A stretch of 59,892 nt of DNA from a virus (taxonomy: Duplodnaviria > Caudoviricetes). The number at the start of each line of letters is the position of its first letter. Within the stretch, counting starts at the first letter, position 1. Position numbers and translations under genes: made by a program. Location of the stretch: positions 1 to 59,892 of IMG/VR virus record IMGVR_UViG_3300020122_000432, one strand, 5' to 3'. Below, in pieces: positions 698-14,778 of this stretch. The notes below the pieces were generated by a model. That model made no database searches, was not told the DNA's origin, and saw only the letters and a list, made by a program, of their open reading frames with translations.

Positions 698-1903
698 CTA
701 CCCTACCAGGTAGGGTAAGCGGTGTGAGTGGGTGACGTCGATGTCATACTCACGGTCGCCGATGACCTCACCGGTGTGACTACCGGGCTCTCCCTGGACG
801 GCCGCGCGCACCCATCGACCGATCCACCGACCGCAGTCGACTGTGATGCCCTTACCGTGTGTCATGAGAAGACCCGACTGATTGCGAAGCGGCCAGAGCC
901 GCCAGTCGTCGGGAAAGCCCATGATGCGCGCGGCCTCGCGGTGCGTGAGTGTGCGCTCCTCGGTCGGGTGAATGCAGGTCAGCAGCGAACCGCCCGTGAT
1001 CACTCTCGCCGGGTTGTCACCGTTCCACCGGATGGGTGTGGTGAAACCCATGTTGAAGTTATTCAGCACGATCTTGTCGGCCGTGGCGCGGAACGAGTCT
1101 GGAAGCCGACCGTGTCGCTCGTGGTAGCGCCGGCACACCTCCGAGATCGACTCACCCGGCCGCCAGCCAACCGCACTCATGAGGTCGGCGATGCGAGTGG
1201 TGAGTGGATTGCTGATCGCGGTGTGTCCGTCCACCGAACCGGTCACGGAGCGACGTGGTGTTGCCCAGTGGGAGGCGGGTGAGCGGTAGGGTTGCTGGTG
1301 CCACGTGAGACTGAGCGACGCGAGATCGCCGATCGCCTCGTTGAGCGTGGGTGTTGAGCGCACCCGCGGGATCTCCACGCCGAACGGCACCTGCGACAGC
1401 ACGAAGAAGTAACGTCGTCGCATGGAGCAGCCACCCAGGGAGAGGGCGTTGTGTCGCACGTGGTACAGATCCCACCGTCGTCCCGAGAACTGCTCGACGT
1501 AGTTCCGTAGTCGACGCATCAGGTCCAGGCCATCGGGACGTGTACGGGCCATCTGAACCGACTCAAACACCGCCACCGGTGGCAGTGCCCGGGTAACGTA
1601 GTTGGCAAACGCCCACATGCAGTGGTTGATCGGAGAGTCCGCGCCGCGGAACTGCTTCGCCGACATGACGGAGAACCCAGAGCACGGTGGGTTCCCGAAC
1701 ACCACCTCGGCCTCGTGAGGTGCCCAGTCCTCGGGTTCACTGACCTGCGCCTGCCAGCCGTCGCCGAGAAGATGCCGGTTGGCCTCGCAGTTCGCGACTC
1801 CGAAGCCTCCCGGCATCTCCTTCTTAGCGACGAGCTCGAAGCCGGCCTGGACCATGCCGAGGGTGAACCCACCCGCGAAACCCATGACGTCAACGGCTCT
1901 CAC
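698..1903 (-). CDS. DNA cytosine-C5 methyltransferase family protein (divergent motifs)
   Basis: Motif IV GNPPC, motif VI FESV, motif VIII RRRYF, motif IX RTLTHREAARIMGFPD. Confidence 0.85.
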   Translation of the reverse strand: MRAVDVMGFAGGFTLGMVQAGFELVAKKEMPGGFGVANCEANRHLLGDGWQAQVSEPEDWAPHEAEVVFGNPPCSGFSVMSAKQFRGADSPINHCMWAFANYVTRALPPVAVFESVQMARTRPDGLDLMRRLRNYVEQFSGRRWDLYHVRHNALSLGGCSMRRRYFFVLSQVPFGVEIPRVRSTPTLNEAIGDLASLSLTWHQQPYRSPASHWATPRRSVTGSVDGHTAISNPLTTRIADLMSAVGWRPGESISEVCRRYHERHGRLPDSFRATADKIVLNNFNMGFTTPIRWNGDNPARVITGGSLLTCIHPTEERTLTHREAARIMGFPDDWRLWPLRNQSGLLMTHGKGITVDCGRWIGRWVRAAVQGEPGSHTGEVIGDREYDIDVTHSHRLPYLVG

Positions 1904-1907
1904 CAGA

Positions 1908-2378
1908 CTACCTTACTACGATGATTTCTCGTTCACCGCACGCGTCCGCCGGCCCGGCGCAGTCGACACTCGGGTCGTCCAGTGCGCGGTGACACGCCTC
2001 GCACTTGCCCGAGACACCGTCGTAGCCGGTGGCCGCTCGCGCGTGGTTGATCTCGAGCTTCTGGTACAGAGAGATCTCGAGAAGCTCGGCCAGTCCCGCC
2101 GGGCCGAGGTCGGGTCGCGCGGCGAACATCAGGTTTGTCAGGAACTGCCACGCGTCGCGCAGCTCGGCGAAGAACTTGTCCTCGTGCACGTGACGTGACG
2201 TTGCCCAGGGTTTCCACCCGGTCTCGTCCAGCGCCTCCATGAGCTCGCTGACGCAGGCCAGTGTGCAGTCCCGGATGTACCGCAGCCGCGTGTCCGGTGT
2301 CATCGCGGGAAGATCGTGACCCAGTCTCTCCTGAAAGGCGAGCTGTGCCTCAAAGAGATCTTCTAGCTTCGGTAGCAC
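1908..2378 (-). CDS. All-alpha dimeric dUTPase/dCTPase (MazG superfamily)
   Basis: ELMEALDETGWKPW and ELRDAWQF motifs. Confidence 0.8.
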   Translation of the reverse strand: MLPKLEDLFEAQLAFQERLGHDLPAMTPDTRLRYIRDCTLACVSELMEALDETGWKPWATSRHVHEDKFFAELRDAWQFLTNLMFAARPDLGPAGLAELLEISLYQKLEINHARAATGYDGVSGKCEACHRALDDPSVDCAGPADACGEREIIVVR

Positions 2379-12583: not shown

Positions 12584-13052
12584 AGATCACCACCGTCAGA
12601 CCACACCTCTCCATGAACGCGTACGTCTCCTCCGGTCGCCGGTACGAGCGGCCGGTGTCGGGCTGCACGACGACCGTCTCGATGCCCGAGTTTGCGATCA
12701 TCTTACCACACGGGTAACACACGTGACTCGTTACGTAGAGGGTACCGCGTCGACGTGAAGTATGATCACTCGTGACGAGAGCGTTCGACTCAGCGTGAAG
12801 TGACGGGCAGTCAGTGTAGTCAGCCCGTACATCATCAGGTAAGCTCCGAGCTCGAAGGCACCATGCGCCGCAAGCACTGTCACCGTGGTCGAATCCTCGG
12901 GGAGGGTTGTTGTACCCCGTCGCGAGAATCCGATTGTCGGGGTCCACGATGACACATCCCACCTGGGCACGTACACACAGACTCCGCGCAGCCACACCGC
13001 GAGCCACCTCCAGCCACGTGTCATCCCACGACTTGCGCGAGTTGTCGCCCAT
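12570..13052 (-). CDS. dCMP deaminase
   Basis: ATGYN, LHAESNA and CYPC zinc motifs. Confidence 0.9.
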   Translation of the reverse strand: MGDNSRKSWDDTWLEVARGVAARSLCVRAQVGCVIVDPDNRILATGYNNPPRGFDHGDSACGAWCLRARSLPDDVRADYTDCPSLHAESNALVTSDHTSRRRGTLYVTSHVCYPCGKMIANSGIETVVVQPDTGRSYRRPEETYAFMERCGLTVVIYESR

Positions 13053-13848
13053 ACCACCGCTCCGACTCTGTCTGGGCCAGGTCGAGCTCACCCTGACTGA
13101 TGACACGTGCTCGCTGCTGCACGATGATGAGCTGCTCGCCGTCGACACCGAGTCCGTCGGGTTGAAAACCGAACGGCTCCGGCGCCGTGAATAACTGGGC
13201 GGCTGCCGTGACGTCACGGTCATAGAGGTGAAGTGACCACGCGGTGTGGGTGTACGTCCCCGGCGCGATACCTAAGACGCGAGCCAGTGTCAGCTGAAGC
13301 TGTGTGAACTGAAAGAGGTCGTAGGGAAGACCCAGCCACACGTCGTTCGAGCGCATGACCGTGGTCATGTGTAGGCGGTCCCCCTGGATCGAGAAGCCCA
13401 ACGCGACGGTGCACGGGTAGTCCTTCTTGCCCAGTGTGTTGTCAAGCTCGGGATTCCAGAGGGTCACCACTGCCTGCCGTGTGTCGGGATCTACCCGGAG
13501 CTTCGACACCACGTGTGACAGCTGGTCACCGACTCGCTGACCGTACGCGCCGTGAAACACACCGTCCGGCTCAACGTACCGCGCAAAGTTGGGTGACGCC
13601 ATGAGCATGAGACGTGGGTCGTGAAACGCTCCGATGAGTTGGATCGCCTCGGCTGCCGCGACGCGACCGCTGACGCTGCGACCCGTGTTCAGTGGCAGCG
13701 AGCGGTAGGGTGACTCGAGGACGATGGTGGTGGGACCGAGCTCGTACGTCGGCTCGCCTCGCGGAGCACGCCCTGTGCCCTCGCGCAGTACCAGTTTCAC
13801 GATGCGAGGATACGCGTCCTGACCCGTGCCGTAGTGAAGTGAACGCAC
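13021..13848 (-). CDS. Thymidylate synthase family, dCMP hydroxymethylase/hydroxylase-like
   Basis: AYGQR, DTRQA, catalytic DYPCT, MRSNDVWLGLPYD (Asp at the substrate-specificity site), SLHLY. Confidence 0.85.
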   Translation of the reverse strand: MRSLHYGTGQDAYPRIVKLVLREGTGRAPRGEPTYELGPTTIVLESPYRSLPLNTGRSVSGRVAAAEAIQLIGAFHDPRLMLMASPNFARYVEPDGVFHGAYGQRVGDQLSHVVSKLRVDPDTRQAVVTLWNPELDNTLGKKDYPCTVALGFSIQGDRLHMTTVMRSNDVWLGLPYDLFQFTQLQLTLARVLGIAPGTYTHTAWSLHLYDRDVTAAAQLFTAPEPFGFQPDGLGVDGEQLIIVQQRARVISQGELDLAQTESERWYGRQLAQVVG

Positions 13849-14778
13849 TTAACCTCTTCTCGCAGCGTCGCGAAGCAGCTGGGCGTAGACGTCGCCCTCG
13901 TTGTGATGGAAGCGGCGCCACGCCTGAGGATGAGGCACCACCACGGGAACGATCGGAATCCCGAGAGACACGCAACGGCGACGCGCCACGTTGCCGAGTG
14001 GTATCACACGTGGCTCGGCGAGTGTCTTCCAGAGGGCGACCGGGTCATCGACGTCGCAGGCGTTGGCGACACCCGCGAGTCGCGTCACATCCACGTAGGG
14101 CGTGTGACGGTAGAGGTACGCTCCCGACGTCGCGGGATAGGGCATGAACGCGGGTGTGTGCGGACCCTTGCTGTTACCCTCGTTGCGTACCTCACCGAGC
14201 AGTAGCAGCTCGGGTCGCGGTGGTCCCACGTACGTCACATACGTGCCCAAGTCAACGACCTCACGCTCGGAGTTGCGAGCGGCCGCGATGACTGACATCA
14301 CGCGCTCACCCGTGGCGTAGCCACCGATCGTGACCGTCTTGAGCAGTGTCTGGTTGCGCACCTGGGCGTAGCCGCGGATGATGCGCTCGAGCATCTCCGG
14401 TCGCACGACCTCGTCACCGCGTGTGATGATCCGGTTGCGCATCTGTCCGAGTGGCGGGTCGAGGTAAACGACGACCGCGCCGCGTGAGCGGAGAAACATC
14501 TCGGTGTACACGTGCACGCCGTCGGTGCACTGGGTGCTGCGCTCGAAGACGCGTGGGTAGACTCGCTCACCCCAGTGCCACCGGTCGCAGATGATGTGTT
14601 GGTTCTTTCCCGGCCGGTACGTCACGAGTGGCAGCACGTACTCGTCCAGGGGGTGGCTCTGCGGCGGTCGGGCGTGAAGTACGGTGAGTGGCTCGCGCTG
14701 TGCCTGGAGAAACGCGCGCAGCCGGTTCACGAAGGTGCTCTTACCCGCGCCGTCGGGGCCCTCCACAATGATCAGCAA
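13849..14778 (-). CDS. dNMP kinase fused to a uracil-DNA-glycosylase-like domain
   Basis: EGPDGAGKST and DRWH in the kinase part; LLLGE, F..SG.YL, IPLGNVA, HPQ in the C-terminal part. Confidence 0.75.
   Translation of the reverse strand: MLIIVEGPDGAGKSTFVNRLRAFLQAQREPLTVLHARPPQSHPLDEYVLPLVTYRPGKNQHIICDRWHWGERVYPRVFERSTQCTDGVHVYTEMFLRSRGAVVVYLDPPLGQMRNRIITRGDEVVRPEMLERIIRGYAQVRNQTLLKTVTIGGYATGERVMSVIAAARNSEREVVDLGTYVTYVGPPRPELLLLGEVRNEGNSKGPHTPAFMPYPATSGAYLYRHTPYVDVTRLAGVANACDVDDPVALWKTLAEPRVIPLGNVARRRCVSLGIPIVPVVVPHPQAWRRFHHNEGDVYAQLLRDAARRG

Follow-up and report, generated by a model that had tools for sequence, protein, structure and literature searches.

The window analysed here is the whole of a 59,892-bp IMG/VR virus record (IMGVR_UViG_3300020122_000432), linear, with a CheckV completeness of 78% and a GC content of about 64%. 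On its minus strand, from 698 to about 16,300, lies a single tightly packed operon that combines candidate enzymes for making a modified cytosine nucleotide, replication and recombination genes, and a sugar-gene cassette. We consider it probable that this operon specifies a pathway of the T4 kind, in which glycosylated 5-hydroxymethylcytosine (5hmC, or hmC) takes the place of cytosine, with a new kind of sugar supply, a GT75 mutase feeding a transferase like the T4 beta-glucosyltransferase (BGT). In the direction of transcription the operon runs from a thymidylate kinase (TMK)-like kinase, a thymidylate synthase (TS) homologue, a dCMP deaminase, a family-A DNA polymerase and a small open reading frame (ORF) at the RuvC position, through an SNF2 helicase, a PD-(D/E)XK nuclease, an AAA_24 recombinase-like ATPase and a DUF669 protein, to a 446-aa protein, a GT75/RGP protein, a short-chain dehydrogenase/reductase (SDR) epimerase, an all-alpha NTP pyrophosphatase and a C5 DNA methylase. 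By ascending position, with NDP standing for nucleoside diphosphate, the features are:

698..1903, minus strand: C5 cytosine DNA methyltransferase, 401 aa, closing the cassette (PF00145, E 5.7e-19)
1908..2378, minus strand: all-alpha NTP pyrophosphohydrolase, 156 aa, candidate dCTPase/dUTPase (PF08761 dUTPase_2, E 1.5e-06; PHROG 18650 dUTPase, E 9e-20)
2378..3316, minus strand: extended SDR NDP-sugar epimerase/reductase, 312 aa, 4-epimerase-like (PF01370, E 7.5e-37; PHROG 540 nucleotide-sugar epimerase, E 1.4e-49)
3298..4335, minus strand: GT75 protein (MtdL/Hyg20/RGP family), 345 aa, predicted Mn-dependent NDP-pyranose to NDP-furanose mutase (Pfam RGP, E 3.8e-12, 46.5 bits; cut-off 23.8)
4332..5672, minus strand: GT-B glycosyltransferase of T4 BGT type, 446 aa, predicted DNA (hmC) glycosyltransferase
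5758..12583, minus strand: replication and recombination genes separating the two halves of the pathway (Pfam: DUF669, AAA_24, PD-(D/E)XK nuclease, SNF2, the small RuvC-position ORF, family-A polymerase)
12570..13051, minus strand: dCMP deaminase, about 160 aa (PF00383, E 1.9e-16; PHROG 174, E 1.8e-40)
13021..13848, minus strand: TS homologue, 275 aa, predicted dCMP 5-hydroxymethylase (PF00303, E 7.6e-23)
13849..14778, minus strand: TMK-like P-loop kinase, 309 aa, candidate 5hm-dCMP kinase (Thymidylate_kin, E 3.9e-07, residues 5-46)

A reading made earlier from the sequence alone (the sequence-only reading) had named the TS homologue, kinase, deaminase, pyrophosphatase, GT-B, GT75 and SDR genes, and all of them lie on the minus strand where it placed them (Pfam and PHROG matches); it left out the C5 methylase at 698-1903, though its range starts at 698. 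The translational coupling it described for the three sugar genes is also borne out: the GTG with which GT75 starts and the TGA that ends the 446-aa ORF run into each other (GTGA), and the SDR, read from ATG 3316, has its first 19 nt in common with the end of GT75. By ORF coordinates the SDR stop and the pyrophosphatase start have one base in common, and the stop of the TMK-like kinase abuts the TS start. The longest ORF of the SDR spans 2378-3340, its likely start being the ATG at 3316 behind GGAG; that of the deaminase reaches 13223, with the domain beginning at residue 65 of the long ORF and a likely start at ATG 13051.

The TS homologue bears on the nature of the base. In the PDB it comes closest to the CMP hydroxymethylase MilA (E 8e-21); aligned with E. 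coli ThyA and T4 gp42, it keeps Cys146 and D169 and has Asp for L143 and for N177, the same set as gp42. The motifs concerned are KKDYPC (143, also as in MilA), RSND (169) and PYD, which aligns with E. coli PFN and T4 RND (177). Passages of Lee et al. (2026, PMC13326640) give N177D in TS homologues as the sign that dCMP is the substrate, acidity at position 143 as the sign of a product other than a methyl one, such as hydroxymethyl, and D169N as the mark of the 5-hydroxy-dCMP synthases of RB69, DLP3 and RL38J1, present in all those tested. Asn at 169 is lacking in the window protein and, because D169 is kept, these residue rules predict a dCMP hydroxymethylase and not a 5-hydroxylase. Thymidine hypermodification by a dUMP hydroxymethylase and a 5-hydroxymethyldeoxyuridine (5-hmdU) DNA kinase is out for the window, given the Asp at 177 and a kinase with no HMUDK Pfam match.

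The TMK-like kinase matches PHROG 761 thymidylate kinase (E 1.1e-18), and its best PDB match is YorR (2axp/3kb2, E 8e-05); its C-terminal ~150 aa correspond to no known family. The same YorR entry appears in Table 1 of Lee et al. (2026, PMC13326640), a table included in the passages drawn on here, for the kinase adjoining the DLP3 TS homologue. The pyrophosphatase falls in the all-alpha dUTPase_2/MazG-like group; no PDB sequence match was obtained for it, and its role as a dCTPase we infer from its context.

Sequence searches with the 446-aa ORF gave no Pfam (E <= 0.01, PF09198 included), PHROG, NCBIfam or PDB match, and tblastn of its family against 50,697 GenBank phage records gave none at E <= 1e-05. 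It has at least 537 homologues, the named ones all 'hypothetical', and many of the 120 listed lie on ~60 kb contigs. An AlphaFold2 model built on a 37-sequence alignment is confident (predicted local distance difference test, pLDDT, 86.1; predicted template-modelling score, pTM, 0.86) and has a two-Rossmann-domain GT-B fold nearest to BGT. In a Foldseek search of the PDB the top six matches were T4 BGT entries (E 2.9e-09 to 2.8e-08), followed by generic GT-B enzymes and the HY126 phage glycosyltransferase; the second match in a BFVD structure search is named 'DNA beta-glucosyltransferase' (E 5.7e-17), and a protein language-model search placed the protein with clusters that carry PF09198 in 97-100% of their members (score 0.95). 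As modelled, then, the protein is a GT-B enzyme of the BGT type. Such a fold alone does not tell the acceptor; taken together, fold and context point to DNA.

The adjacent 345-aa protein is, by alignment, a full-length MtdL homologue with most of the catalytic residues. Its single sequence matches PDB MtdL at E 1.7e-27; a profile of eight phage GT75 homologues reaches E 6.2e-49 over MtdL residues 8-327 and only E 2e-04 against the plant UDP-arabinopyranose mutase 8cid. Among 19 positions checked, in MtdL numbering, it retains T13, I15, D40, S86, R90, D109-D111, R159, D195, S228, Q229, R257, D260, R289 and H292, while N42 is Lys, D87 is Ile and H287 is Gln; its own D97-D99 and R144 align with MtdL D109-D111 (the DDD motif) and R159. 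Passages of the MtdL paper (PMC9937993) report that mutagenesis showed D109, R159, D195, Q229, R257 and D260 to be needed for mutase activity, list D195, S228, Q229, R257, D260, R289 and H292 as sugar or phosphate ligands, describe R159 as the Arg that is glycosylated in plant GT75 enzymes and is also catalytic, and tie T13 and S86 to GDP selectivity, with Pro13 in UDP-using plant enzymes. From this homology we infer a pyranose-furanose mutase activity for the window GT75.

These two genes travel together. Of 12 viral loci found with the GT-B gene as seed, 9 extend beyond the gene and all 9 have GT75 adjacent, the other 3 ending at the gene. With GT75 as seed we found 41 viral loci, 8 of them on contigs that the GT-B search had also returned. 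In 30 of the 41 the neighbouring gene is GT-B, 4 break off at that point in the same replication context, and 7 have no GT-B gene and lie in a different context. The co-occurrence in related phages that the sequence-only reading had anticipated is thus found, as are the GT-B fold (nearest match T4 BGT) and the GT75 homology it had assigned to the two proteins. In related loci from both seeds the pyrophosphatase is always in the cassette.

The hydroxymethylase-type TS accompanies the pair. A TS homologue is present in 5/5 related records rated 100% complete and in 4/5 further ones, the sole miss being a record rated 21% complete, and D143, C146, D169 and D177 occur in 9/9 TS homologues of the checked records with the GT-B/GT75 pair. 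One of the contigs, L051, differs greatly in background: 290 kb long, with direct terminal repeats and 24% GC at its TS locus, it carries both the pair and a TS with the hydroxymethylase signature. There the TS gene lies away from the sugar cassette, which reads (L051:6712-13166) GT-B, GT75, an SDR homologous to GDP-mannose 3,5-epimerase (GME), an unknown 369-aa protein, C5 methylase and a GmrSD_C-like gene. Since L051 and the other records both have the combination, the hydroxymethylase-type TS pairs with GT-B/GT75 across unrelated phage backgrounds, and this is the strongest argument for the sugar genes acting on hmC. A divergent cassette (L054:5485-13726) holds GT-B, a class-I S-adenosylmethionine-dependent methyltransferase, GT75, an NDP-sugar dehydrogenase, a GME-like SDR, HMUDK_hel (the 5-hmdU DNA kinase helical domain, PF18723, E 1.3e-22), a MazG-like gene and C5 methylase; its gene content suggests a more elaborate modification and further chemical variety.

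The SDRs adjoining GT75 fall in two kinds, one GME-like and one of the window kind. In the PDB the window SDR matches MoeE5 best (E 7e-27), followed by UDP-glucose 4-epimerase (E 1.8e-20), while GME comes in at only E 7e-13; its motif is SSSAVY, without the Cys of the SSAC motif present in the GME-like partners. In GME, C145 of that motif is the catalytic acid/base Cys. The weaker GME match and the missing Cys do not support the window SDR as a GDP-mannose 3,5-epimerase. Its own kind occurs on 17 further contigs at 36-46% identity. GME-like SDRs are found in seven cassettes with the GT-B gene and in four GT75 loci without it; that of L051 matches Arabidopsis GME over its full length (E 1e-73) and has the motif SSSACVY. 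GDP-L-galactose, which GME makes, is the natural MtdL substrate according to passages of the MtdL paper (PMC9937993), so phages with a GME-like SDR, judged by their sequences, most likely make GDP-L-galactofuranose. The 19-position GT75 signature of the window is identical to that of L028, whose SDR partner is GME-like.

A cassette can do without the SDR, which is missing from seven distinct contigs. Five of these (L006, L008, L009, L010, L012) have P13, N40, H86 and T87 in their GT75, and two (L021, L039) have T13, N40, S86 and T87; from these gene sets, such phages probably use a host-made pyranose. For the window our best guess at the sugar donor is a GDP-linked hexofuranose, with UDP-galactofuranose (UDP-Galf) and UDP-L-arabinofuranose (UDP-L-Araf) as possible alternatives: because its GT75 keeps the MtdL-like T13 and S86, the donor may be a GDP-sugar rather than a UDP-sugar. 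Going by the SDR sequences, L-galactofuranose is well founded for the sister cassettes, not yet for the window with its 4-epimerase-like SDR.

Two named phages have a closely similar operon with different sugar genes. DSL-LC01 (OQ999401) and Micrococcus phage Kurnik (OR756649; L064, 33000-56311) follow the operon order of the window: first a kinase or TS and the deaminase, next PolA with the helicase, nuclease and recombinase, then the sugar genes, and last a MazG-like gene and C5 methylase. Their TS homologues carry the same four-residue signature, and the order of the replication and recombination genes is the same in the window, the related loci and both phages. In the sugar slot they part from the window: DSL-LC01 has a glycosyltransferase followed by a UDP-galactopyranose mutase (UGM) of the flavin adenine dinucleotide (FAD) type, and in Kurnik the place is taken by an unrelated 442-aa protein with two small glycosyltransferases. 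The Kurnik 442-aa protein is out as a relative of the GT-B family (hhalign probability 2.5%), and a pairwise comparison of the DSL-LC01 glycosyltransferase with the 446-aa protein showed no similarity (E 0.077). A non-homologous pyranose mutase in the DSL-LC01 slot is in keeping with GT75 acting as a mutase. In the passages searched of the DSL-LC01 paper the sugar genes are not treated as DNA modification; for Kurnik, which is recorded with a named Micrococcus host strain, nothing on its DNA came up in the literature searched.

Three different sugar gene sets thus occur in the slot that is flanked by the recombination genes on one side and the MazG/C5-methylase genes on the other. We suggest tentatively, with more doubt than belief, that in actinophage-like viruses it is a swap site for glyco-cassettes acting on a common 5hmC base, that the GT75 version would yield L-galactofuranosyl-5hmC or a related L-hexofuranosyl-5hmC from a GDP-sugar, and that the C5 methylase would have a pathway role not recognised so far. 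Besides the three gene sets, the GME-like epimerase adjoining GT75 in 7 pair-holding loci, the signature identity of the window and L028, and the retention of T13 and S86 speak for this idea.

In T4 the pathway consists of the gp56 dCTPase, gp42 dCMP hydroxymethylase, gp1 kinase, Cd deaminase and alpha- and beta-glucosyltransferases, and yields glucosyl-hmC. The window resembles it in pathway logic, enzyme classes, the TS signature at 143/146/169/177, the BGT fold, and the presence of a dCMP deaminase and an all-alpha pyrophosphatase. T4, however, uses host UDP-glucose and has no sugar-nucleotide genes, whereas the window couples GT75 and an SDR to its transferase; the window kinase is TMK-like rather than gp1-like, the transferase is ~95 aa longer with no PF09198 match, and the cassette includes a C5 methylase.

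Passages of Lee et al. (PMC13326640) describe two further relations. RB69, DLP3 and HY126, which make arabinosyl-5-hydroxycytosine, are like the window in that an enzyme of the TS family stands beside a TMK-like kinase, the transferases are of the GT-B type, and the phage itself encodes a route to a furanose donor, in their case UDP-Araf. They differ in that their TS, with D169N, makes 5-hydroxy-dCMP with flavin, the window keeping D169, and in that their Araf donor comes, as set out in those passages, from ribulose-5-phosphate via an isomerase, a kinase/uridylyltransferase and a phosphatase, with no pyranose mutase. Rhizobium phage RL38J1 and the Pootjesviridae, with hexosyl-5-hydroxycytosine, are like the window in having a phage NDP-sugar pyranose mutase proposed to supply a furanose donor, namely a UGM proposed to make UDP-Galf for DNA glycosylation (Lee et al. 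2026, PMC13326640); as a UGM (Glf) the enzyme depends on FAD, and the base there is 5-hydroxycytosine, whereas the window has a metal-dependent GT75 and a predicted 5hmC. The characterised homologues of the window GT75, similar over its full length, are MtdL and Hyg20, described in passages of PMC9937993 as GDP-L-galactose/GDP-L-fucose pyranose mutases of A201A/hygromycin A biosynthesis; those lie in an antibiotic gene cluster, the window GT75 in a phage replication operon. No report of a GT75 enzyme or of furanosyl-hmC in phage DNA came up in the literature searched; candidates for the latter were assessed on their titles and opening abstract lines, and of these only Lee et al. (2026) was relevant. 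Within the theme of glycosylated hmC, the new part is therefore the predicted GT75-fed BGT-like transferase; the idea of a furanose mutase has its precedent in RL38J1, and for the GT75 type we found none.

Set against these comparisons, the chemistry proposed by the sequence-only reading is supported in refined form, within the reach of sequence, fold and comparative genomics. Its dCMP-type TS homologue holds, with D at 177 as in T4 gp42, and its 5-substituted cytosine acceptor agrees with a cytosine-type TS and is narrowed by the kept D169 to hydroxymethyl, not hydroxy. That the phage makes a furanose NDP-sugar is consistent with the MtdL homology; its examples, UDP-Araf and UDP-Galf, are less favoured, as T13 and S86 leave room for a GDP-sugar donor. 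It had also called the route unrecognised from T4 or RB69; a furanose-forming mutase that feeds phage DNA glycosylation has a precedent in the FAD-type UGM proposed for RL38J1.

The C5 methylase that closes the cassette is an ordinary member of its family by its motifs. Its best PDB match is M.HaeIII (E 2.6e-09), and it carries PPCS with the catalytic Pro-Cys, FESV, RRRYFF and TLTHREAARIMGFPDDW, where PCS stands for PCQ and ESV for ENV, and an FPDDW motif that aligns to M.HaeIII. By tblastn it lies downstream in 26/30 loci holding the GT-B/GT75 pair, and no other cassette gene is as well conserved (55-68% identity, against 29-42% for GT75); orthologues at 38-40% identity occupy the same slot in DSL-LC01 and Kurnik. 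Its presence is puzzling because DNA with every cytosine C5-substituted offers no substrate, and may mean partial replacement or another role.

Outside the operon, the window holds several further features:

17719-20484: Prim-Pol/D5-type primase-helicase, 921 aa
23618..24799, plus strand: accessory RmlB-like NDP-hexose 4,6-dehydratase, 393 aa (TIGR01181, E 2.3e-53, below the equivalog cut-off; PDB dTDP-glucose 4,6-dehydratases, E 1e-36)
31119-34058: 979-aa protein with a phage Mu F-like head domain and a C-terminal ADP-ribosyltransferase exoenzyme domain (Pfam E 4e-22)
54039-54626 and 54313-55227: GT2-like matches in two overlapping frames, suggesting a frameshift or two domains
55334-56422: GT4-like gene at the end of the structural module
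56518-56895: WhiB-family regulator

The RmlB-like gene, between the primase and the structural genes, was absent from 10/10 related records (6 rated 100% complete; positive control run), which puts a 6-deoxyhexose route through it out as part of the conserved module; it may feed the sugar route of this phage only, or an unrelated glycosylation. The GT2/GT4-like genes may serve virion or envelope glycosylation. By polymerase, the nearest named phages, with identities of 32-39% throughout, are DSL-LC01, a metagenome-assembled Actinomycetia phage, and after it phages of Microbacterium, Micrococcus, Arthrobacter and Gordonia; with the WhiB gene these sequence relationships fit an actinobacterial host, in line with the 'actinophage' of the sequence-only reading. 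A near-identity DNA search of 2300-6000 against GenBank phages gave no match.

As we picture the pathway, the all-alpha pyrophosphatase would convert dCTP to dCMP, which the TS homologue, on the basis of its active-site signature, would hydroxymethylate. The TMK-like kinase together with host NDP kinase would raise the product to 5hm-dCTP, to be incorporated by the phage family-A polymerase, and the dCMP deaminase would shunt part of the dCMP to dUMP for dTTP, as T4 Cd does. After replication the BGT-like GT-B protein, its fold modelled and its acceptor presumed, would put a sugar on the hydroxymethyl group of the DNA. For this the adjacent SDR would make an NDP-pyranose from a common host nucleotide-sugar and the MtdL-like GT75 would turn it into the NDP-furanose donor; the translational coupling of the three sugar genes would suit direct handover of a thermodynamically disfavoured furanose donor to the transferase. 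The glycosylated product would shield phage DNA from host nucleases. In this scheme the mutase activity, the DNA acceptor and the identity of the sugar are all predictions.

Several findings weigh against this scheme. On the transferase side, the 446-aa protein has no Pfam match at all, PF09198 included, and its hhalign comparison with T4 BGT is weak (probability 34.5%, E 4e-04, 53 columns): it pairs the invariant K354-P-W-E357 with BGT R-V-W-E (K354/E357 = R269/E272), but the residue alignment covers this C-terminal motif only and does not reach the catalytic Asp100 (named in the title of 1nzd). The likeness of the pyrophosphatase to T4 gp56 is marginal (pairwise E 0.015), the SDR is missing from the seven contigs named above, and a conserved C5 methylase is hard to square with full replacement of cytosine. 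On the mutase side, D87, essential in MtdL, is Ile in the window, and the Mn ligand His287 is Gln there and in 43/45 alignment rows covering the position (four contigs occur twice among the rows). Passages of PMC9937993 place Ser at the D87 position in the active AtRGP1-3 and connect the inactivity of AtRGP5 with its lack of both His287 and Arg257, which makes Gln287 the chief doubt on mutase activity. The window GT75 keeps Arg257, unlike AtRGP5, and because Gln stands in 43/45 rows it is a fixed feature of the viral GT75 clade, not a decayed site. Lastly, 7 of the 41 viral GT75 loci have no GT-B gene, and in Synechococcus cyanophage S-T4 (L017, 6007-6915) a GT75-like gene annotated 'putative membrane protein' sits among heptose, fucosyltransferase and epimerase genes in a lipopolysaccharide (LPS)-like sugar cluster, so GT75 has a place in phage sugar pathways unconnected with DNA as well, and a GT75 gene in a phage is not in itself proof of DNA modification.

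Three other explanations were weighed. The changes at His287 and D87 would suit a GT75 protein that acts as a transferase, adding a second DNA sugar or glycosylating itself or another protein, while the acceptor stays as we propose and the DNA sugar is an ordinary pyranose. GT75 proteins are of GT-A type and self-glycosylate on a conserved Arg according to passages of PMC9937993, and two or three transferases work one after another in T4 relatives and in RB69, DLP3 and RL38J1 according to passages of PMC13326640. We think this unlikely: the other residues proven by mutagenesis in MtdL (D109, R159, D195, Q229, R257, D260) are kept, DSL-LC01 has a true mutase of another family in the same slot, and in sister cassettes as well as GT-B-less loci GT75 is paired with the GDP-mannose 3,5-epimerase that makes a known MtdL substrate.

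Alternatively, the base might not be a 5hmC made before replication, the TS producing 5-methyl-dCMP or 5-hydroxy-dCMP, or a C5 methylase-like enzyme creating the acceptor on DNA. The strong conservation of the C5 methylase, the fact that the low-GC contig too has one in this position, and the empirical nature of the TS product rules lend this some colour; we give it little credence, as the TS matches T4 gp42 and MilA at 143/177 without the D169N of tested 5-hydroxy-dCMP synthases, the methylase has ordinary C5-methyltransferase motifs, and no TET/JBP-like oxygenase turned up in Pfam scans of the window proteins, in which not all small ORFs were included. Very improbable, in our judgement, is a sugar trio that acts on a virion or host envelope component while the nucleotide genes make plain hmC DNA or serve nucleotide pools only. 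The GT2/GT4-like genes and RmlB-like dehydratase elsewhere in the window and the LPS-like setting of the S-T4 GT75 would be in keeping with it, and the acceptor is not given by fold alone. But the trio lies inside the replication operon, between recombination genes and pyrophosphatase, in every relative; the nearest fold is a DNA enzyme, T4 BGT, clearly above generic GT4 enzymes; and the pair occurs with a hydroxymethylase-type TS in 9/9 checked records, including the unrelated low-GC jumbo contig.

Sugar-coated cytosines are a main means of phage protection against restriction enzymes and CRISPR nucleases, and the set of host defences that still work shifts with every new sugar. To our knowledge, the donors so far are host UDP-glucose, UDP-arabinofuranose from ribulose-5-phosphate, and a proposed UDP-galactofuranose from an FAD mutase. 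If our preferred reading, glycosylated 5hmC from a T4-like pathway, is right, the GT75 mutase with its BGT-like transferase would be a fourth supply route, probably bringing a new DNA sugar; if the more tentative idea of a swap site and a GDP-sugar also holds, it would be the first GDP-dependent DNA glycosylation fed by a metal-dependent mutase. The enzymes could serve as tools for labelling 5hmC with sugars other than glucose, and the cultured Micrococcus phage Kurnik, which has the base-making half and the methylase, offers a route to testing the common parts. The cassette is spread through a large uncultured group, with at least 537 transferase homologues, often on ~60 kb contigs, and the pathway would give bacterial-type GT75 enzymes their first biological role outside antibiotic pathways.

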